Shown: piece by piece, positions 16,923 through 46,066 of the stretch
Layout: the number at the start of each line of letters is the position of its first letter
Numbering within the stretch: position 1 is the stretch's first letter
Assembly: GCA_048886305.1 (NCBI GenBank)
Contig: JBHLKV010000001.1
Span: 13,039 to 77,038, forward strand
Reading direction: 5' to 3'
DNA length: 64,000 nt
Source: Candidatus Hodarchaeota archaeon
GTDB lineage: Archaea; Asgardarchaeota; Lokiarchaeia; Sigyniarchaeales; SOKP01
The notes under the pieces: model-generated
Told to the model about the DNA's origin: nothing
The model's input: only the letters and a program-made list of their open reading frames with translations
The model's database searches: none
Made by a program: the position numbers and the translations under genes

Positions 16923-17990
16923 ATGTCTGAAGTAGAACCTAATAAAGTAATATTGTTTTTAAAAAAGAGAAAGCGTATCCTTATCGGTATAATCACAATA
17001 TTATTAGTAATTTTAATGCTTTTTATTGTAGATTTTCCCAAAATTATATTAAAGATTAGGTTAATTGGCTTTTGGGGTACAATTTTATTTGTTTTAGCTT
17101 ATTCATTAGCTTTCCTATTTAGATCTTTAAAATTGAAGTTAACATTTAAAGGAATTGATAAGAACATTAATTTTAGCACATCATATTTTTCTACTGGTGC
17201 GAGTTTTGTAATAAATGACTTTACTCCTGGTAAATTGGGTGATGTAGTAAAAATTTTTATTATTAAAGATCAAGAAAAACTACTATTAAGTGAATCTGTT
17301 GCTGGAATTGCTATAGAGAGAATATTAGATTTAATTTTTTTATTTATTATCAGTTGTGGGTCTTTAATTTATCTTTATATAAGTAGTATTGAAGGAACAG
17401 AAAATGTAGAAGTTTTAGGTCAAGATATTCAATTTTATTTAATATTAGGAGCGATATTAATAATTGGATTTGTTATTATCCTAATTCTTGTACTATATAA
17501 GACTGAAAGTATATTAAAAATAATTAAAAAAATATCAGCTAGAATGGCAAACTATATTGAAAGGTTCTTAGGTAATTTTAAAAGAGGAATGAAGAATTTC
17601 AAAGATCATAAAAAAGAATTCTTATACGTGGTTCTGTTAGGATTCCCAACTTGGATTATTGATGCTCTCATAATTTCAATATTTTTCTATATATTAGGAT
17701 ATCACCTGAATATACTCTTATTGGTTCTAGCTATGATATTATTGTTTTTTAGTAAGACCTTTCCTATAACGCCTGGAGGTTGGGGAATTTCTGAAAATAT
17801 TGGAGCATTATTTATTTTCATTTTTTATCCATCTTATCCACCATATGCTGGTGATATATGGTATACTGAAATCTTATCGATATTTATTATTGAACATTTA
17901 TTTAGAAGTGCATATCTCTTTTTTTATGGTGGTTTTTCTATACTTCATTATAATGTTAAAATAAAAAACCTTGATTTAATTACAACATAA
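16923..17990 (+). CDS. flippase-like / lysyl-phosphatidylglycerol-synthase-TM-region family (UPF0104) integral membrane protein
   Basis: 355 aa with about 8 hydrophobic helices and a basic N-terminus. The layout is typical of UPF0104 proteins that accompany GT2 genes. The family call is tentative. Confidence 0.55.
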   Translation: MSEVEPNKVILFLKKRKRILIGIITILLVILMLFIVDFPKIILKIRLIGFWGTILFVLAYSLAFLFRSLKLKLTFKGIDKNINFSTSYFSTGASFVINDFTPGKLGDVVKIFIIKDQEKLLLSESVAGIAIERILDLIFLFIISCGSLIYLYISSIEGTENVEVLGQDIQFYLILGAILIIGFVIILILVLYKTESILKIIKKISARMANYIERFLGNFKRGMKNFKDHKKEFLYVVLLGFPTWIIDALIISIFFYILGYHLNILLLVLAMILLFFSKTFPITPGGWGISENIGALFIFIFYPSYPPYAGDIWYTEILSIFIIEHLFRSAYLFFYGGFSILHYNVKIKNLDLITT

Positions 17991-19117: not shown

Positions 19118-19888
19118 CTAAATTGGAATTTTTTTCTGTATCTTTTTTATAATCTTTTTGAAATGAAATTTATAGACGTTATATATAAATTGGTATAATT
19201 TTGAATCACCAAATAATCTATATTTTAATAATACTAAAGCACCTTCAATTCCATCAAAGTAATTTATTTTAGCAAATCCATATCGACGAATATTATATCT
19301 TATTGGACATTCTTTTATTTGGTAACCTTTTAATATAATTTGTGCTGTGATTTCTGGTTCTAATTCAAATTCTCTCGCATTAAGTTTTAAATCATCTAAG
19401 ACTTTTTTAGTGAATAATTTATAACCTGTTTCCATGTCCGTTAAGTTCACATGAAATAGAAAATTTGTCAATTTAGTGAGTAAAATGTTTCCTAATAAGT
19501 GAGATTTTGACATTATTTTAGGTTTTGTACTAAATCTAGTACCATAAACTACTTCAAACTCTTTTGATAAAATAGGTTCTAAAAGTTTAGGAATATCTAA
19601 AGGATCGTACTCAAAATCTGCATCTTGGATGATAAAAATATTTCCATCTGCATATTTTAATCCGACTCTGATAGCAACGCCTTTTCCTTGATTTTCTGGT
19701 AATCTAATAAACTTTATTTTTTTAGTAATTATCTCTTCTAAGATTATTTCTTTATGATTTATTCTTGAACCATCATCTACAACTATTATCTCACGATCGA
19801 TGGGAAAATCTACTCTTAAAAGGGATTTAATCAATGGTTTAAGAGTTTTTTCTTCATTATAACAAGGAATAATAATGCTTAGTTTCAA
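19118..19888 (-). CDS. family 2 glycosyltransferase (dolichyl-phosphate hexose synthase-like)
   Basis: LSIIIPCYNEE, VVDDGS and the QDADFEYDP (DxD) motifs. The start codon is TTG, and no in-frame ATG is nearby. Confidence 0.85.
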   Translation of the reverse strand: MKLSIIIPCYNEEKTLKPLIKSLLRVDFPIDREIIVVDDGSRINHKEIILEEIITKKIKFIRLPENQGKGVAIRVGLKYADGNIFIIQDADFEYDPLDIPKLLEPILSKEFEVVYGTRFSTKPKIMSKSHLLGNILLTKLTNFLFHVNLTDMETGYKLFTKKVLDDLKLNAREFELEPEITAQIILKGYQIKECPIRYNIRRYGFAKINYFDGIEGALVLLKYRLFGDSKLYQFIYNVYKFHFKKIIKKIQKKIPI

Positions 19889-22020: not shown

Positions 22021-23259
22021 ATGGCAAAGGCTAGAGAAATAAAAAATGGAAATGGAAATGGAAATGGCATTGAAATTGAAATGCCTTATTATTGTACTGA
22101 ATGCAAACGTAATCATACAAAAGGCAAAATATATAAAGAACATTTAAAGTATGCAAATTCTGAGAGTGAAAATGAAGAAATTATTGATAATGAGAATTTT
22201 GAATCAGATTTTGAGAATTATGATGATGAAGCAGAAATCATCGAGGCCTTTAGTGAATTAGAAGAAGAAATCAATTCTGATGGTGAGAATTTCTATACTA
22301 ATGAGAATGATATAAATAATTGTGTTGAAGAAGTAAAAAAACTTCCCGGAGTAGGAGAATCTACTCTTAACAAACTAATTAAAGCAGGTTTTAATTCATT
22401 AGAATCAATAGCTTTTACACCTCCCACTATAATTCAGGAAGAAAGTGGTTTAGGAGAAAAGACAACAGCAAAACTAATTAAAGCATCTATGGAAAAACTT
22501 AATATAGGATTTAAATCTGCTGAAGTTGTATGGGAACATCGAAAAAGCATTGCTCGAATTTCTACTGGTAGTCAAGAATTAGATGATTTATTAGGTGGAG
22601 GGGTCGAAACAGGTAGTGTTATTGAATTTTTTGGGGAATTTAGAACAGGAAAAACTCAAATTATGCACCAATTATGTGTAAATGTTCAATTACCTAGAGA
22701 AAAAGGAGGTCTTGAGGGAAATGCGCTATACATAGATACAGAAGGTACATTTCGACCTGAAAGAATAATACAAATGGCAGAAGCTTTAGATCTCGATCAT
22801 AAAAAAGTTTTAAAGAATATAGTGTTTGGTCGTGCTTATAATTCAGATCATCAAATACTTTTAATTAAAGAAGCAGCAAATCTAATTAAAGAAAAGAATA
22901 TAAAATTAATTGTAGTAGACTCTTTAATAGGTCACTTTAGGAGTGAATATATTGGTAGAGGGACCTTAGCAACTCGACAACAAACAATCAATTCACACCT
23001 ACATGATCTCTTAAGAATATGTGATATATATCCTGAATTAGGAGTTGTAGTAACAAATCAAGTTCAAGCCAAACCAGATGTTTTTTATGGAAATCCATTA
23101 CGTGCAGCTGGAGGAAATGTCGTAGCACATGGATCAACCATTAGGGTTTATTTAAGAAAAGGAAAAGGTGAACAAAGAATAGCGAAAGTGGTAGATGCCC
23201 CCCATTTGCCAGAAGGGGAAGCTGTCTTCAGTATTACTGGAAGTGGAATAACAGATTAA
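22021..23259 (+). CDS. radA: DNA repair and recombination protein RadA with a ~100-aa N-terminal extension
   Basis: HhH domain [17 protein letters not shown], Walker [10 protein letters not shown], Walker B LIVVDS and the C-terminal [20 protein letters not shown]. Residues 1-100 are extra: a GN repeat, [13 protein letters not shown], then an acidic tract. Confidence 0.95.
22045..22068 (+). repeat. hexanucleotide microsatellite (AATGGA/C) x4 inside the radA 5' extension, followed by (ATTGAA) x2
   Basis: Read directly: aatgga aatgga aatgga aatggc attgaa attgaa. It encodes [12 protein letters not shown]. Confidence 0.9.
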
Positions 23260-24029: not shown

Positions 24030-27000
24030 TTATATTAATTTTTCATATTCCTTAGATTTATTCGATAATCTTTTAACTTCCTTTGTCATTTCAGTTACGC
24101 CTAATTTAAAGATTTCAGATGCTACTCTTGAAGCCATTCGAAACTTTTGTGCAGCTTCAGAGTAACGCCCTTCTTTAGCTGCTAATTTAGCTCCATTCTC
24201 TAATTCCTTTAGTTTTGCTTTATAATCTATTATTTTTGTCGTGCGGATAAGATCTTCGAGTTCTTCAAATTCTTTTTGTATTTCCCAATTTGTAGCAATC
24301 ATTAAAGCATTCTGGCAAATCGTAATAGCTTTATCGTAATCATTCTCTTTTCTCGCTAAAGCAGCATTCTTCTTTAGGTTTTTAATCTCCTTTTTCGCTG
24401 ATTTTAGATCTTCTATTTTTACTACTCCCACTTTCATGGGTGCAGATACAATTTCCTGGCTTTCTACTATACTGGCAAAGTAAGCTTCTCTTTCAGCAGG
24501 ACCCATTTGAGCTAGATCATTTACAAGTTTTTGTTTTTCTTCGGGGCTTAAGCTAACTAATCCCGCGACTTTTTGGCTAATAAGATTCAATTCTTGTTGA
24601 GAAATTGGCTGGGCTTCAATGGTGGAGATCTCTATTGGCATTAAGATTTTTTTATCTCTTAATTCCTTAATACCACTAAAAATTTCCGCTGTATCTTTCT
24701 TAGTTCTTTCTGTAGCTTCTTTCAAAAGAGTTGCTATAAAGAAGAAATCTCTTTCTGCCTCTTCGCAGCAACTATGAGCAACTTTTAATACATCTTTTGA
24801 ATGGGGTGTTTTAAGAGTTTTTGCCTCTGAAAATTCATATGTAATCTTATGAGGTAAAATTATTGAAGTATTGAAGACATCATCAATAATTACCCCTGAA
24901 TTTCTGAAAACATTTAATTGCCCTCTCCACCTAGGAAGTTCATTTTCATAAATTTTCTCAAAAGCTGCAATAAATTCAGTTAGATGTTTACGTAAAATAA
25001 TTGAAGCTTTCTTACTTAACACTAAGGCAACCCTACTATATTCGCCATCAGCTAATAAGAGCATCTTATCTCCATATGTTATTTCATTTAATGCTTTCTG
25101 AGCTACCATCTCTTTTCCAAATGAAGAGACCGCAGAAATGAAACCACTGATTAATTCAGGATCAATTGCCTCAGATCCAAAAGATTTAAAGAAAACACAT
25201 GTTCCTGTTCCCTTATACAAAACTAAAATGTGTTCTAGATTAATAGCGTCATCAAAAATAGTCCTAACTTCAGTTAAAGCCCTTTTCTTTTCACGTTTTT
25301 TAGGAACAACTAATCCTCGATAAGCAGCAATCGAACCAACCCCTACTGCTGCTGCGGCTCCAACAATTATGAAATAAGGTATTAAATCCTCAAAAGCGAA
25401 CGGAGCCGGACCTTCTGCTCTTTCGGTTAATGTTAGATTAAATGAAAATGATTGAATTTCATAATTAACCAATTCAATTGATATCGTAATTGTATAGTTA
25501 CCTTCTTCAGTAATAGATGATAAATCTATATTTCCTCTATAAAAAGTTGCAGCATACCTAATAAAGATGAGAGTTCCACTAGATGGTGTACCAGATGTTT
25601 TGTTGTATGTGACTGTTATTATCGCTGCTGAACCAGAATCTAAAACTAAATTATTACCATAATCAAGGTCAGTAATATTAAATTGAACATCAATATCACT
25701 TCCAAGAGTAGCGTTATAATAGTTATACAAACCTATTGGTAATAGCTCTATACCATCTACTTCAATAGTTTCTAGATTTGATTGAGAACTATTCCCTAAT
25801 AACCTAAATGTTACCGGACTTGTGTTAAAGTTGTATATTGGATATTTAGAAATGTTCAAAGTAATCGTATATTCTCCAGAATCTAATCCACTTGTACTTA
25901 CATTAAGAATATAATAATCCTCAGCTGGTACAGGTATTAATGTCCAATTATGATCTCCCCTTAACCATAAGGAACCGACATCATCATATACTTTAACATC
26001 ATCAGTTGTGAGATCAGGAATAGGTAAACCATCTAATGTGCTATTGAAATATAAATATATTGTTTGATTGAGCCCCGTTAATCTTTTAATTGTTGGAACA
26101 GAGGAAATAATTTCGATAACAGTATTTAACAATATCACTTCTATAGATAGAATAACTTTTTGAGGTTCTTTACCTAATTTTGATATAGTAAAATTACACA
26201 GATATGGATTTACTCTTGAAGGAACATTGTTTACCTCTATATTAACTGTATAGGTACCATTTCCATAAGTATCACTATAAAAAATAAATCCGGAATCTAA
26301 TTCTATATCTGAGAAAGAAGCTCCAATAATAGGATTATTACCGAAATCAGTATCTGTATAATTAAACGTGTATGTAACGTTTACACCATTAGTAGATTGA
26401 AAACTCTTTGTTATATCTTCAATAAAAGTATGATTCACTAAATTAAATATAAACTGAAGTGAATCATTGTTATAATATTGTAATAATGTTCTTATATCTA
26501 CGGTATTTGGACCATAGTTAGCAGAACTTGGATCTATTGTAATATTATAAAAACCAGAAGTACCATTATTAACAGATGTAGAATCCCATGTTCCACCATT
26601 AATACTATATTCAATAGTCCCATCAACAGGTATATTTTGACCTGTATCATTTATATAAACAGTTATATTGAAATCAGGAGATGAAGGATAATAATATTCA
26701 TTGTCTGGTGGTGATATATGAGACAAATCAGTTTCACCATAAATGGTAAGTAATTCTTCTCTAAATCCAGCAGCAGTTTCATTATTCCAAAAAACTTGTA
26801 CACGAAAAACACCATAACTAACGACTGTACTACTTATATCCCAATCAATAAAATTGATATCTGAATTAGCGCTAAGTGTGGTATTATCAGTTGTAAAATT
26901 TAAAAAATCATTAATCAATATTGGACTATAAATACTTAGATTTACTCCATTGGTTCCAGGAATAACATCTTCAAAAAATTCAGCTACAAATGAGACTGTA

Positions 27001-28421
27001 TCCGAATAATTTGCTTCAGTTATTGGATTTAATCCTTTATTCATACCAATTGATTGAAGTAGATTATCGGATTGTCCTGTAATATACCAATTGGTTCCAT
27101 TATCAGCATTAGATATTTTAAGATCTTTAAATCTGTTAATTATCGGACCTATCGTAATATCTGAAGTTTTATCGATAGATCCATTATATGCATTAAAATT
27201 TCTCCATGTGTCAGGTACAGTAAAATTTATATAAAAGTTGCTTAATCTTGAATCAAAATCATCAATCTCCTCAGTTGGGAGAGCCATCCAATTAACATCT
27301 GCAGCATTTTTAGTTAATGTAAAATTTGAAGCTGCTGTTATATCACTTTTTGTGTAATTTGCTTGTACTTCACTGATTTGGCAGGTAACATCCCACCATT
27401 CTGCTGAAATTTCAAAGTTTAAACTATTGGTAACTACTTCAAATGATGCATCTAAATCCCAAGTCCCCTGATTAGCAAAACTATTATAGTTATCTACAGC
27501 ACTACCATTGATCTTTAAACTTACTTGATTAGGCGTTGGAGTATTATTAAGAGGAAGTAAATGGAGGATAAGTGAAGGATCAATACCAGCCACAGGTTGC
27601 CATCCACCATCATCTATCCATACTTTTGAATCATCGCTTGAACCGTCATTTTCATCATGAAATTGTACATTAGCTAATGAAGAGGAGGTAGTTTGAGTCA
27701 TCCAGATATAAAATAAGTTATTTTCTGTTTGTGAGACATCCAATTGAATATCCAAATCTGTAAAATTATACCATATTCTATTTGTATCATTATATATTGT
27801 AACACTATTTTGTATTGTATCTAAATAGGTGTCTGGTCCATAATCGCTAAAAACACCATTCCATGATGCACTCCATAGCTCCAAGTTTATTGATCCATCA
27901 AAATCATCAAGTAAATCTGATTCTGAGAAGCACATAGTGAAATTATCTAAAATACCATCACCAGGTACCTGAAAAGAAACTGCATGGTCATAATTACGAA
28001 TTGAGGTTGATAAAGTTGTTCCTGTTTCAATTACAAGTGTTTTATTTGGTGCAACTATATCCATAACCTCGATGCTTATATTTTTCGCAAAAAAATTATT
28101 GTTACCTGGAGAAGCTATGTTAAATGTATTATTATTTGAATCTGAAGCATTCAAATTCCAGTTAAATGATTCATTAAAATAAGATTGATGTAATGTAACA
28201 TTAACATTTTCACCAGTATTGCTTAAATCATTTGTATAACCTGCAGCTTTAAGATTATCATCAAAAAAATCGAATTCATCATAATTAAATTTTGTCTCTT
28301 CCTCAATTGCTCTATTTAGTAAATTTGTTTGTGAAACATTCAAGCTTACAAACATTGTACCAAGAAATAAAAATAGAATGCTGATACTTTTTAGTTTTCT
28401 TTTGTTTTTCGATTTAAACAT
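24030..28421 (-). CDS. giant type-I surface glycoprotein-like protein: signal/anchor, ~1,000-aa beta-rich ectodomain, single TM, ~430-aa cytosolic tail (longin/roadblock-like module plus helical TPR/MIT-like end)
   Basis: N-terminal KSKNKRKLKSISILFLFLGTMFV signal. I count more than 40 N-x-S/T sequons by eye in the ectodomain, with recurring G.YT(I/V).I strands. The TM helix is IPYFIIVGAAAAVGVGSIAAY followed by KKREKKR (nt ~25320-25390). The ATG at 28421 is preferred over the TTG at 28430. Confidence 0.85.
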   Translation of the reverse strand: MFKSKNKRKLKSISILFLFLGTMFVSLNVSQTNLLNRAIEEETKFNYDEFDFFDDNLKAAGYTNDLSNTGENVNVTLHQSYFNESFNWNLNASDSNNNTFNIASPGNNNFFAKNISIEVMDIVAPNKTLVIETGTTLSTSIRNYDHAVSFQVPGDGILDNFTMCFSESDLLDDFDGSINLELWSASWNGVFSDYGPDTYLDTIQNSVTIYNDTNRIWYNFTDLDIQLDVSQTENNLFYIWMTQTTSSSLANVQFHDENDGSSDDSKVWIDDGGWQPVAGIDPSLILHLLPLNNTPTPNQVSLKINGSAVDNYNSFANQGTWDLDASFEVVTNSLNFEISAEWWDVTCQISEVQANYTKSDITAASNFTLTKNAADVNWMALPTEEIDDFDSRLSNFYINFTVPDTWRNFNAYNGSIDKTSDITIGPIINRFKDLKISNADNGTNWYITGQSDNLLQSIGMNKGLNPITEANYSDTVSFVAEFFEDVIPGTNGVNLSIYSPILINDFLNFTTDNTTLSANSDINFIDWDISSTVVSYGVFRVQVFWNNETAAGFREELLTIYGETDLSHISPPDNEYYYPSSPDFNITVYINDTGQNIPVDGTIEYSINGGTWDSTSVNNGTSGFYNITIDPSSANYGPNTVDIRTLLQYYNNDSLQFIFNLVNHTFIEDITKSFQSTNGVNVTYTFNYTDTDFGNNPIIGASFSDIELDSGFIFYSDTYGNGTYTVNIEVNNVPSRVNPYLCNFTISKLGKEPQKVILSIEVILLNTVIEIISSVPTIKRLTGLNQTIYLYFNSTLDGLPIPDLTTDDVKVYDDVGSLWLRGDHNWTLIPVPAEDYYILNVSTSGLDSGEYTITLNISKYPIYNFNTSPVTFRLLGNSSQSNLETIEVDGIELLPIGLYNYYNATLGSDIDVQFNITDLDYGNNLVLDSGSAAIITVTYNKTSGTPSSGTLIFIRYAATFYRGNIDLSSITEEGNYTITISIELVNYEIQSFSFNLTLTERAEGPAPFAFEDLIPYFIIVGAAAAVGVGSIAAYRGLVVPKKREKKRALTEVRTIFDDAINLEHILVLYKGTGTCVFFKSFGSEAIDPELISGFISAVSSFGKEMVAQKALNEITYGDKMLLLADGEYSRVALVLSKKASIILRKHLTEFIAAFEKIYENELPRWRGQLNVFRNSGVIIDDVFNTSIILPHKITYEFSEAKTLKTPHSKDVLKVAHSCCEEAERDFFFIATLLKEATERTKKDTAEIFSGIKELRDKKILMPIEISTIEAQPISQQELNLISQKVAGLVSLSPEEKQKLVNDLAQMGPAEREAYFASIVESQEIVSAPMKVGVVKIEDLKSAKKEIKNLKKNAALARKENDYDKAITICQNALMIATNWEIQKEFEELEDLIRTTKIIDYKAKLKELENGAKLAAKEGRYSEAAQKFRMASRVASEIFKLGVTEMTKEVKRLSNKSKEYEKLI

Positions 28422-28671
28422 TGTAATCAATTAATAATTTCTATTTGGATTTAAATACTATTAGTATATTATTTAAAATCTTTTATTTTAAGATTAAATA
28501 GTTTTTTTATTAATTATCTAATTAATCAAATCATAACAATTTCTTAATTTATACTTTTTCAAAACAAATCAGATCATTTCATCTTTAAAGAAGAAAATAG
28601 TAATTTATGAATAACATAAAAATCGAAATAATGTAAATTTTTTAAAGAATGATAAAGATTGAATTATTACA

Positions 28672-29434: not shown

Positions 29435-30607
29435 ATGAATACACTAATAAAACAGAAATCAAAATTAAAATCAAAAATTTTTTTCCATGAAAAGATAGTT
29501 ATGACAAGTGAAAAAGAAAGAAATATTTCGATTTTATTAAAGAATCTCATAAATTCTCATCAAGATTTAGAAATAGCTTTTCTTTATTCGAGAGAAGGAC
29601 TTTTGATTTCTAAGTATGGAAGGTTGGAAGATCAAGACGAATCTGAGACAGAAAATGAACTAGAAGTGATCTATGGAGCAATTACTACCATAGCAGAGAA
29701 TTTATTAAATAGGATTAGTAATGAATATAAGATAGGACATTTTGGTAGTGGATCTTTTGAAACTCCTGACCATAGAATAATTTTTCTCGAAGCTGGTTCT
29801 GAAGCTATATTAATTCTATTTTGTAATTATGAAATAAACTTAAATAAGCTTTTTCCAGTTGCTTACCTAGTAGCTGAAAAAATAGCACAATTAATTGAAG
29901 AAAGTTTTGATTTCAAGTATAATTCTTTAGATATTCCAGAATTAAGTTTCCATGACAATTTTTCCTTAAAATTGGATCAATATCGTTCTGCAGGTGAAAT
30001 AAAGCCTGAAATGGAAAATATTTCAATGAAATATCATATAAAGAAATCTAAAGACGTCAAAAATGCATTTAAATTGATAATATTAGGTTCTGCTGCTGTT
30101 GGAAAAACTACATTAGTGAGAAGCTTTTTGAAGAAGGAACAAACCCAAGATTATCGAGCAACGATTGGAATTGCCATAAGCTCTAAAAAGTTTTATATTC
30201 AAGGTTTTAAGGATGAAAAAATCAATTTTCTTATCTACGATTTAGCAGGTCAAGAATTTTTCAAACGAATTCGGAAGGAATATTATAAAGGAGCGAATTG
30301 TGCTTTTGTTGTTTATGATATAACACGAAGAGAGACTTTTGATGAAGGGATAGATTATTGGTTTAAAGATGCTAGAGAGGAATTAGGAAATGTACCATTT
30401 GTATTAATAGGTAATAAGGTTGACTTAGAAGACCAAAGACAAGTGTCAAAAGAAGAAGGACTGAAAAAGGCAGCAGAACTGAAAAGTTTCTTTATCGAAA
30501 CTTCGGCATTACACAATATTAATGTTCAAGATACTTTTAAACTCATCGGAATTGGCTTATTTTTCAAATCTGAAGATGAATTAACAAATAAGGATACATT
30601 ATTTTAA
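29435..30607 (+). CDS. Roadblock/LC7 (MglB-like) domain fused to a C-terminal Rab/Ras-like small GTPase
   Basis: Residues ~28-155 are roadblock-like (ISILLKNL..DLEIAFLYSREGLLIS...HRIIFLEAGSEAILILFC..). Residues ~211-375 carry G1 GSAAVGKT, switch I TIGIA, G3 DLAGQE, G4 NKVD and G5 ETSAL. The ATG at 29501 is an alternative start. Confidence 0.9.
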   Translation: MNTLIKQKSKLKSKIFFHEKIVMTSEKERNISILLKNLINSHQDLEIAFLYSREGLLISKYGRLEDQDESETENELEVIYGAITTIAENLLNRISNEYKIGHFGSGSFETPDHRIIFLEAGSEAILILFCNYEINLNKLFPVAYLVAEKIAQLIEESFDFKYNSLDIPELSFHDNFSLKLDQYRSAGEIKPEMENISMKYHIKKSKDVKNAFKLIILGSAAVGKTTLVRSFLKKEQTQDYRATIGIAISSKKFYIQGFKDEKINFLIYDLAGQEFFKRIRKEYYKGANCAFVVYDITRRETFDEGIDYWFKDAREELGNVPFVLIGNKVDLEDQRQVSKEEGLKKAAELKSFFIETSALHNINVQDTFKLIGIGLFFKSEDELTNKDTLF

Positions 30608-45469: not shown

Positions 45470-46066
45470 TTATAATACAATATATGGTTTATTTTGTTTT
45501 TTAAACATCAAATTATTTAACTCTTTAAAGACTTTTAATACATTATAATTTTCTAAGGCAGAGGTTTTGTAAAAGCCATCTAAATGTTTCTCGTCAACAT
45601 ATTCAAGAATTATATCATCAGGGATGATTGCGGTATTAGCTGTTTTGTCTAGTAAATCACTTTTGCTTCCTACTAAAATAATGGGAATTTGAGAATCTAC
45701 AGCATACTTAATTAAATTATCATACCAAAAGTCTAATTGCTCAAAAGATGAGTAATTAATTAAATCAAATACTAATAGAGCTCCATTAGCTCCTTCTATA
45801 AACTTAGGTATTAAAGGTTTAAACCTTTCCTGACCTCCAAAATCAAAAATAGAATTTAACACAAAATTTTCTTTTGAGTCATTTAAATGGTCTTTCTTAT
45901 GAATTCCCAAGTAAATCGAGTGAAAATTTATTCCTATTGTGAGTGATGTGTCTATATTAAATGAGTTAAAACAAATTCTGTTAAATAAGCAGGTTTTTCC
46001 AACACTAGCAGGACCACAAATCGTAACTTTATAGTTATATAATGCTTCTTTATCGCTAGATACCAT
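45470..46066 (-). CDS. stand-alone Rab/Ras-like small GTPase
   Basis: G1 GPASVGKT, Rab-like switch I TIGINF, G3 DFGGQERF, G4 variant GSKSD and G5 TSAL. There is no C-terminal Cys lipidation motif. Confidence 0.9.
   Translation of the reverse strand: MVSSDKEALYNYKVTICGPASVGKTCLFNRICFNSFNIDTSLTIGINFHSIYLGIHKKDHLNDSKENFVLNSIFDFGGQERFKPLIPKFIEGANGALLVFDLINYSSFEQLDFWYDNLIKYAVDSQIPIILVGSKSDLLDKTANTAIIPDDIILEYVDEKHLDGFYKTSALENYNVLKVFKELNNLMFKKQNKPYIVL

Follow-up and report, generated by a model that had tools for sequence, protein, structure and literature searches.

The window analysed here is a 64,000-nucleotide stretch of contig JBHLKV010000001.1 (assembly GCA_048886305.1, positions 13,039 to 77,038) from a metagenome-assembled genome (MAG) of a Lokiarchaeia-type Asgard archaeon that is labelled Candidatus Hodarchaeota and whose nearest genomes carry the label Promethearchaeota. 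It encodes a giant membrane protein whose architecture, assigned with high confidence, consists of a signal-like segment and an immunoglobulin (Ig)-like array outside the cell, one transmembrane helix, and a longin-based tail inside (Table 1). The protein is interpreted as a variable surface coat or adhesion protein whose tethered longin tail docks a conserved cytosolic partner, a reading that is given a probability of about 45%. The longin domain and the winged-helix-like domain that follows it form a cassette common to a large and apparently undescribed family of Asgard surface proteins whose ectodomains are unrelated. An original prediction made from the letters of the window had described such a protein, and its whole observation, comprising the open reading frame (ORF), the peptides, the sequons, the topology, and the fold pattern of the tail, was confirmed; the peptides that it quoted were all found where it had placed them.

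The large domain was predicted to lie outside rather than inside the cell, and hydropathy and the positive-inside rule agree with this orientation. A type I topology follows from the signal-like N-terminal segment, the distribution of the sequons, the one strong transmembrane segment (amino acids ~1016-1038), and the sequence RGLVVPKKREKKR directly after it, which fits the positive-inside rule. Hydropathy puts the transmembrane helix that had been expected at ~25320-25390 at 25317..25385, and the tail that follows has 430 residues, in agreement with the ~430-residue cytosolic region proposed. The signal-like N-terminal pattern recurs in 38 of 47 full-length orthologues. A third hydropathy peak at residues 757-781 was rejected as a transmembrane helix because it falls within predicted beta strands of the confident ectodomain model. 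The end of the gene had been set at 28421; an ATG is located there, three codons inside the TTG start, and is used by NCBI as the start of the identical 1,463-residue protein MFX0041295.1 (annotated as 'hypothetical protein'), but the ORF extends to the TTG at 28430. Searches of the whole protein and of the tail against Pfam and NCBIfam returned only sub-threshold tetratricopeptide repeat (TPR) matches.

The ectodomain features a dense array of N-x-S/T sequons. The protein contains 46 sequons, of which 43 lie within residues 36-1012, compared to 20.7 ± 4.0 in 2,000 composition-preserving shuffles with a maximum of 35 in the ectodomain; the earlier eye count of more than 40 is thus upheld, and the enrichment exceeds chance. 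The last 431 residues contain 2 sequons versus 1.7 expected. The sequons are putative sites of N-glycosylation, judged from the motif. The recurring strand motifs described previously (GEYTITLNIS, GNYTITISIE, GTYTVNIEV, and GFYNITIDP) are present, and the pattern G-x-[YF]-x-h-x-h occurs in 5 copies with a spacing of 86-127 residues, which is above the 0.31 ± 0.55 copies expected. The AlphaFold2 model of residues 36-1012, which used 44 aligned sequences as input, is all-beta with ~65 strands and has a mean predicted local distance difference test (pLDDT) score of 85.4. A Foldseek search of this model against the PDB gave 427 matches at E ≤ 1e-3, and all of the matches listed are Ig-like arrays, so the Ig-like nature of the ectodomain stands. 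The best match is the surface-layer (S-layer) protein of Nitrosopumilus maritimus (8c8m_A, E 5e-14), and further matches include the Haloferax S-layer protein, Bacillus EA1, an RTX adhesin, cadherins, contactins, complement Ig arrays, and KIT. Length and strand count in the unsegmented model suggest roughly 9-10 Ig-like domains. The secreted, sequon-rich, and C-terminally anchored Ig-like chain has the architecture of an S-layer glycoprotein.

The AlphaFold2 model of the last 433 residues has a pLDDT of 80.0 and a predicted template modelling (pTM) score of 0.65. The tail begins with a juxtamembrane sequence, VPKKREK..L.EVKTIFDDAINLEH, that is conserved in the orthologue alignment A1. The helix of this segment precedes the longin sheet; roadblock domains have alpha-beta-beta-alpha-beta-beta-beta topology with an N-terminal helix packed on the sheet. 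DSSP assignment of the longin domain determined strands at tail residues 32-39, 45-50, 82-86, 89-95, and 99-105 and helices at 58-70 and 111-127, mostly with pLDDT values of 75-90, so that the model reproduces the five-stranded antiparallel sheet of a longin domain. The original prediction had read a beta-beta-alpha-beta-beta-beta-alpha pattern of longin or sigma-adaptin type at the start of the tail, and this is the topology that AlphaFold2 returned. The best Foldseek match is AP-1 sigma3 (9ddt_B), with a template modelling (TM) score of 0.71 and a root-mean-square deviation (rmsd) of 2.9 Å, followed by AP-2 sigma (6owo_S; TM score 0.62, rmsd 2.9 Å), the VAMP7 longin (4afi_A; 0.57, 3.6 Å), and zeta-COP (5mc7_A; 0.56, 4.3 Å); TRAPP superposes with a TM score of 0.44 and an rmsd of 6.5 Å. 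The AP sigma alignments span ~125 columns, and the longin matches have a probability of ~1.0. A Foldseek search against viral models (BFVD) found giant-virus longin SNAREs (synaptobrevin longins) and otherwise weak TPR/SNAP matches. Roadblock identity, which had also been suggested for this module, was not borne out. No Pfam Robl_LC7 match was obtained, and the roadblock domains of LAMTOR and the Rag C-terminus (TM scores of 0.43-0.57, rmsd 4.4-9.2 Å) superpose worse than the sigma-adaptins; membership of the Roadblock/LC7 (MglB) family was rejected on both counts. PDB sequence searches with the tail and with the cassette profile gave no match. Among 13 diverse cassettes, one matches Sybindin at 9e-4, below the gathering score, and the relatives L121 (Sybindin, 5e-4) and L122/L123 (Fuz_longin_1, 5e-3) likewise have weak Pfam matches below the gathering scores.

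The longin start and the C-terminal hairpins of the tail were recognized in the original prediction, but the winged-helix-like domain and the three-helix segment between them were overlooked. In the connector, residues S156, I157, I158, L159, and H161 (tail numbering) of the TSIILPH motif are invariant among the orthologues, and its Pro does not vary in the diverse cassette alignment A4. The domain that follows consists of helices at tail residues 176-192, 199-210, and 214-226 and strands at 196-198 and 230-232. It is termed winged-helix-like on the basis of its predicted topology and of its positional correspondence to the soluble relative L112, in which ~25 residues after the longin domain (to residue 640) align with the cassette and lie inside a Pfam wHTH stretch at 611-655. 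In most distant family members this domain is where the cassette ends. A predicted disordered linker separates the three-helix segment from the C-terminal helices. The two hairpins at the C-terminus had been compared to TPR and MIT domains. The helical hairpins are present, and the isolated C-terminus matches one repeat of TPR_7/TPR_2 at E 4e-4, with 20.7-20.8 bits versus cut-offs of 27-27.9, but MIT was found neither in Pfam nor among the 50 PDB and 50 viral matches listed for the tail model, a search in which the C-terminal unit was not used alone. Weak Foldseek matches of these helices include the Hip TPR, designed TPRs, and gamma-SNAP. P0121, the single longer relative whose sequence was read, contains the ~135-residue TPR-like unit ~3 times.

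A homologue search with the tail returned 92 proteins, all from Asgard MAGs, and relatives of the tail are present in at least 92 species-representative genomes, where the gene is single-copy and syntenic. The full-length orthologues have 1,269-2,265 residues and 3.2-5.4 sequons per 100 ectodomain residues. The conserved block comprises a P-type ATPase gene, an optional GTPase gene, an ATP-grasp gene, the giant gene, a small gene for 148 residues, RadA, and an ORF of 409 residues that was taken as a sugar-phosphate isomerase ('PGI'), an unconfirmed label for a product with no Pfam match at E ≤ 0.001. Paralogues were found neither in the window nor within 10 kb of 80 orthologous loci. Median identities to the window proteins are 76% for RadA, 69% for the 'PGI' ORF, 69% for the tail, and 35% for the ectodomain; in orthologues aligned in detail the ectodomain identity is 32-58%. 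The tail is as conserved as RadA over its whole length, which suggests several specific contacts.

The change in conservation is located at the membrane. In comparison with the orthologue L002, whose flanking genes are ~90% identical, 50-residue blocks of the ectodomain as far as residue 1000 are 24-66% identical, most of them 30-46%, and the identity is 98-100% from the cytosolic face of the transmembrane helix onward, so that the switch occurs exactly at this helix. The ~90% amino acid identity of the flanking genes implies that synonymous sites are saturated, which bears on the ratio of nonsynonymous to synonymous substitutions (dN/dS). The orthologue L005 is a mosaic relative to the window protein, with 24-46% identity over residues 1-450 and 52-90% over residues 451-1000, and L002 and L004 carry an extra insertion of ~100 residues close to the membrane. 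Pairwise comparison of 45 sequences revealed that tails of 88-97% identity occur with ectodomains ranging from 38% to 91%, and that some tails of 66-67% occur with ectodomains of 57-59%; incongruent pairs include a tail of 97% with an ectodomain of 57% and a tail of 67% with an ectodomain of 59%. These comparisons suggest that ectodomain modules have been exchanged and have diversified fast over a frozen tail.

A profile of the cassette, extending from the longin domain to the three-helix region, was searched against 1.84 billion representative proteins and matched 3,788 proteins (clusters) at E ≤ 1e-3, 967 at E ≤ 1e-10, and 180 at E ≤ 1e-30. The figure of 3,788 is an upper bound for the membrane family, since soluble relatives are counted too. 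The architecture was read in the best 138 of the 3,788 matches, and 122 of these had enough upstream sequence for evaluation. A transmembrane helix ends 11-25 residues (median 15) before the cassette in 116 of the 122 evaluable representatives, and the parts upstream of the cassette contain a median of 4.1 sequons per 100 residues. Of the 138 proteins read, 58 stop within 30 residues after the winged-helix-like domain, and others extend further. The same transmembrane-cassette architecture was found in metagenome loci in a scan with alignment A6. Members with a named source are all Asgard, namely Promethearchaeota, Hel-, Thor-, Hermod-, Hod-, and Odin-labelled MAGs, and Harpocratesius, and the name 'Ig-like domain-containing protein' has been given to some of them. 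At least two separate cassette loci are present in one Helarchaeota MAG (locus-tag prefix ACTSRP), and one of these loci features two adjacent called genes. Tandem cassette surface-protein genes are also present in L089 (989..7304) and L096 (304..4269), which indicates local duplication within the family.

The cassette-type longin is found in other settings as well. In L121 (2497..4140) it forms the C-terminal end of an MFS-like protein, whose MFS_1 match of 22.8 bits is below the cut-off of 33.4. The occurrence of the cassette under many unrelated ectodomains and on this MFS-like protein points to general intracellular docking and not to a role tied to one ectodomain. Soluble proteins of ~730 residues encoded in L111 (5905..8139) and L112 (1217..3394) hold the longin domain among PCI, DDRGK, and UFL1-like winged helices identified by Pfam, and L113 and L114 resemble them in size and in longin position. 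The 264-residue protein P0085 from a 792-bp marine sediment contig covers 28% of the tail at 74% identity and has a Pfam Rad51 match in addition. In all loci examined RadA is convergent, with a small gene between RadA and the tail, and either a chimeric contig or an artefact of gene calling may lie behind P0085. Asgard longin domains, longin-GTPase fusions, and multidomain longin proteins are already known (bioRxiv 10.1101/2020.10.19.343400; PMC4917890; PMC10936438; PMC10933270). In the literature covered, which did not include the asCOG tables or Klinger et al. 2016, no membrane-anchored longin family and no type I surface protein with a cytosolic longin and winged-helix cassette was found described for Asgard archaea, and neither was the size of the cassette family nor the contrast between ectodomain and tail; the text of PMC10933270 does not contain the word 'transmembrane'. 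The cassette domain may already be counted as 'longin' in the asCOG tables or in Klinger et al. 2016.

In the preferred reading, the variable glycosylated exterior would act as a coat, an adhesin, or a recognition surface toward partners, viruses, or neighbours. On the inside, the longin platform, which is invariant and tethered to the membrane, would dock a conserved partner in the cytosol. It would probably do so as a dimer, the usual form in which longin/roadblock domains act, and the partner would most probably be a small GTPase of the Ras superfamily or another longin/roadblock protein. Through such docking, the place at which the surface protein sits or clusters would be linked to intracellular machinery. 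Dimerization, the nature of the partner, and the direction in which any signal would pass are putative elements of this model.

A link to small GTPases is suggested by soluble 330-residue proteins from Freyarchaeota/Sigynarchaeota, which consist of a cassette-type longin and a C-terminal Ras-family GTPase (Pfam, 1e-41). Their N-terminal domain aligns with the cassette longin over 123 columns (hhalign probability 98.7%, E 3.8e-16), and a fusion of this kind is a classic hint of a functional connection. The fusion genes are located on metagenome contigs at L117 (3893..4933) and L119 (49..1197), where the taxon was assigned by exact protein match, and the proteins MEX2705490.1 and MDO8090878.1 are annotated by NCBI only as 'GTP-binding protein'. 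The Sybindin (TRAPP) and Fuz/Mon1 longin families, which relatives of the tail match weakly, are Rab guanine nucleotide exchange factor (GEF) platforms. Additionally, longin/roadblock dimers are described as conserved GTPase platforms (PMC10933270).

The original prediction further pointed to a Roadblock-GTPase fusion gene nearby, at 29435..30607. The gene encodes a clear Ras domain at residues 213-370, but a roadblock domain was not matched: the ~200-residue N-terminal domain has no Pfam or PDB match, and the 'Roadblock' label is without tool support, with a pattern that is compatible by eye. The identity of this product to its orthologues tracks the identity of the giant protein's tail. A second small GTPase gene, which is stand-alone, is located at 45470..46066 on the reverse strand, and its product of 198 residues is 31% identical to the G domain of the 29435..30607 product.

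Several results weigh against the proposed docking of a GTPase or against parts of the structural assignment. The adjacent GTPase gene at 29435..30607 occupies its slot in only 13 of the 30 loci that cover the slot and is absent from 17, and an entire clade in which the tail is still 70-73% identical lacks it. Linkage of this gene to the giant gene is not supported. Its N-terminal domain was also rejected as a relative of the tail longin (hhalign probability of 0.6%). GTPase genes near family members occur at 0.11-0.18 per 10 kb, compared to 0.31 per 10 kb in the window. Regulation of GTPases is not universal among longin domains; those of SNAREs and adaptor sigma subunits, for example, have no such role. 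The longin Foldseek E-values are modest (2.5e-3 to 4e-2, none ≤ 1e-3), and no Pfam longin or roadblock family matches the window protein even at E ≤ 1. No winged-helix structure is among the listed fold matches of the tail, and the cassette has no HTH match in Pfam. Coupling of the tail to a GTPase is inferred, and any partner is a candidate. Glycoproteomics of P. syntrophicum detected few glycoproteins and no large surface glycoprotein (PMC11284389). In Lokiarchaeum 109 of 5,381 genes, or ~2%, encode GTPases (PMC4917890), which makes a GTPase neighbour within 10 kb unremarkable. The missing operon linkage is itself weak evidence, because the GTPase genes of P. syntrophicum are generally outside the operons of their presumed regulators (PMC10933270).

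The protein could instead be a purely structural coat, in which the Ig array is a subunit of a Lokiarchaeial S-layer or glycocalyx and the tail only anchors and spaces it, by self-association (through a longin dimer or the TPR-like unit) or through a sub-membrane scaffold, with no GTPase involved. This explanation is considered somewhat unlikely. The best ectodomain folds do include archaeal and bacterial S-layer proteins (8c8m_A, 7ptp_A, and 8opr_A), a single-copy syntenic gene conserved across so many species would suit a coat subunit, and the surroundings of family members show no enrichment of GTPase genes. Cryo-electron tomography of a cultured Lokiarchaeon, which also speaks for a coat, revealed many surface proteins on a single membrane and no ordered S-layer (PMC9834061). 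Against a coat, the proteomics of P. syntrophicum detected no putative S-layer proteins (PMC11284389). The structural coat is also at odds with a tail that is conserved like RadA along its full length and with the presence of the same cassette under many unrelated ectodomains and on an MFS-like transporter. To our knowledge, S-layer proteins do not carry a folded cytosolic domain of 430 residues.

A less probable alternative is a self-adapting cargo or sorting module, in which the sigma-adaptin-like domain and the helical repeats recruit an adaptin-like alpha-solenoid or ESCRT and thereby sort surface proteins into protrusions or vesicles. AP sigma and zeta-COP are the closest structural matches of the tail, Asgard proteins that join longin to adaptin-appendage, Vps28-C, TPR, and HTH/PCI domains have been described (PMC10936438), and the soluble relatives place this longin among PCI and UFL1-like winged helices. 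However, the likeness among sigma-adaptin, longin, and roadblock folds is generic, the flanking genes examined (seven in the conserved block and ten other ORFs of the window) include none for an adaptin, ESCRT, or coat protein, and cultured Lokiarchaeia have so far shown no internal vesicle traffic (PMC10933270). A membrane-tethered transcription regulator, whose winged helix would bind DNA, possibly once the ectodomain has prompted its release by proteolysis, is very improbable: the winged-helix-like topology after the longin domain, one short family member named 'predicted DNA-binding protein' by JGI, and the Pfam wHTH families on the L112 stretch whose start aligns with the post-longin segment speak for it, but no DNA-binding HTH family matches the cassette even at E ≤ 1, conserved protein modules lie on both sides of the domain, most family members end right after it, 200 residues from the membrane, and neither a protease nor a cleavage motif was identified.

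The window protein, read as a surface protein with a docking tail, resembles several known systems in part. Lokiarchaeum longin-Arf-like fusions have been noted (PMC4917890). The Asgard longin-GTPase fusions share with the cassette the homologous longin, the helix LI(S/G)GFLxAIxxF, and the W-x-G...F motif. They differ in that they are soluble, begin at the longin strand, and carry the Ras domain in cis, whereas the window protein has no GTPase domain and its longin is placed 26 residues past the transmembrane helix, under an ectodomain of ~980 residues, with winged-helix-like and TPR-like modules after it. The predicted fold is common to the eukaryotic longin platforms (AP sigma, zeta-COP, VAMP7/Sec22, TRAPP Bet5/Trs23, Mon1-Ccz1, and Fuzzy-Inturned), which superpose on the tail longin with TM scores of 0.55-0.71 and an rmsd of ~3-4.5 Å over ~120-130 columns; the sequence identity is 8-15%, and no Pfam model reaches its threshold. 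No such platform forms the cytosolic part of a type I glycoprotein at the cell surface, and longin SNAREs are tail-anchored with an N-terminal longin. Archaeal S-layer glycoproteins (N. maritimus 8c8m and Haloferax volcanii csg 7ptp) share the secreted, sequon-rich Ig-like chain and the C-terminal membrane anchor, but the sequence identity to the ectodomain is only ~9% and they have no large conserved cytosolic domain. Cadherins, contactins, and Ig-CAMs also feature a tandem Ig- or cadherin-like ectodomain, a single transmembrane helix, and a conserved tail that recruits partners; this is a likeness of possible working and not homology, and the catenin-binding or kinase tails of eukaryotic adhesion receptors are unrelated to the tail of the window protein. 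The Streptomyces conservon consists of the membrane sensor CvnA, which is histidine-kinase-like, the roadblock/LC7 protein CvnB, CvnC, and the Ras-like GTPase CvnD, which are separate proteins encoded in one operon. The logic of a sensor, a platform of the roadblock/longin superfamily, and a small GTPase is shared, but the window protein joins sensor and platform in one chain and has no GTPase in an operon.

Other genes of the window are located close to the giant gene. The product of the small gene directly downstream (Table 1) has a C-terminal part of ~80 residues that is conserved with 45-77% identity in 39 orthologous loci, where the gene occupies the same position. Library scans gave no family match for it, its conserved part looks like a winged helix by eye, and the product is a possible partner for the tail of the giant protein. 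Ahead of its recombinase core, the RadA homologue at 22021..23259 on the forward strand has an N-terminal extension of ~100 residues, in which a GNGNGNG run, a Cys-x2-Cys motif, and an acidic stretch rich in Asn/Glu occur. A membrane protein of the LPG_synthase_TM family (16923..17990, forward strand) and a family-2 glycosyltransferase (19118..19888, reverse strand) are encoded 4-7 kb from the giant gene and may belong to envelope glycan or lipid modification.

Table 1. Features of the giant gene, its product and two neighbouring genes (positions in the window; AF2, AlphaFold2).
Feature	Residues	Position	Strand	Description
Whole gene		24030..28430	-	1,466-aa type I membrane protein; TTG start; stop codon 24030..24032 (ORF list)
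Signal-like Sec-type segment	1-34	28329..28430	-	basic n-region KSKNKRKLK, then hydrophobic stretch; hydropathy peak aa 12-34
Ectodomain	35-1015	25386..28328	-	predicted all-beta tandem Ig-like sandwich array; 43 N-x-S/T sequons; hypervariable, mosaic among orthologues
Single transmembrane helix	~1016-1038	25317..25385	-	Kyte-Doolittle peak 2.08; basic cluster next
Basic juxtamembrane stretch and helix	1039-1064 (tail 6-31)	25239..25316	-	AF2 helix at tail 11-31
Longin-fold domain	1065-1160 (tail 32-127)	24951..25238	-	beta-beta-alpha-beta-beta-beta-alpha; from AF2 DSSP, Foldseek, hhalign
Connector	1161-1208	24807..24950	-	short helices and strand motif TSIILPH; AF2 helix 139-158, strand 160-163
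Winged-helix-like domain	1209-1271 (tail 176-238)	24618..24806	-	AF2 order H-E-H-H-E; with longin, the family-defining cassette
Three-helix segment	1272-1329 (tail 239-296)	24444..24617	-	AF2 helices 245-256, 263-274, 278-289; conserved in orthologues
C-terminal TPR-like unit	1342-1466	24033..24407	-	five long helices (tail 309-432) in hairpins; AF2 pLDDT 86-94
Neighbour gene, N-terminal domain and Ras-family GTPase		29435..30607	+	Pfam Ras 1.9e-44, aa 213-370
Small downstream gene, 148 aa		23278..23724	-	directly downstream of giant gene, same strand

The Asgard archaea hold scores of small GTPases together with longin and roadblock domains. No internal membranes have been seen in cultured Asgard strains (PMC10933270, PMC9834061). 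A longin platform at the inner face of the membrane, under a variable surface array, would offer a concrete membrane site at which GTPase switches could act. The giant protein is a candidate for the identity of the 'complex surface proteins' in cryo-tomography, and the size of the cassette family would allow it to be a prominent component of the surface of Asgard cells. The mosaic exterior over a frozen interior points to selection from outside by viruses, partners, or neighbours, and the conserved tail provides a handle for antibodies, pull-downs, and multimer prediction. A broader proposal, which is put forward tentatively and regarded as rather doubtful, is that the cassette is a general Asgard outside-in coupling device, in which hundreds to thousands of surface proteins, with Ig-like ectodomains that are interchangeable and quick to evolve, would plug into small-GTPase switches through one invariant longin platform tethered to the membrane. 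Asgard cells are thought to resemble the host of eukaryogenesis, and such a device, if real, would be a prokaryotic forerunner of eukaryotic signalling from adhesion receptors to GTPases and of the longin-based platforms for GEFs and GTPase-activating proteins on eukaryotic membranes.

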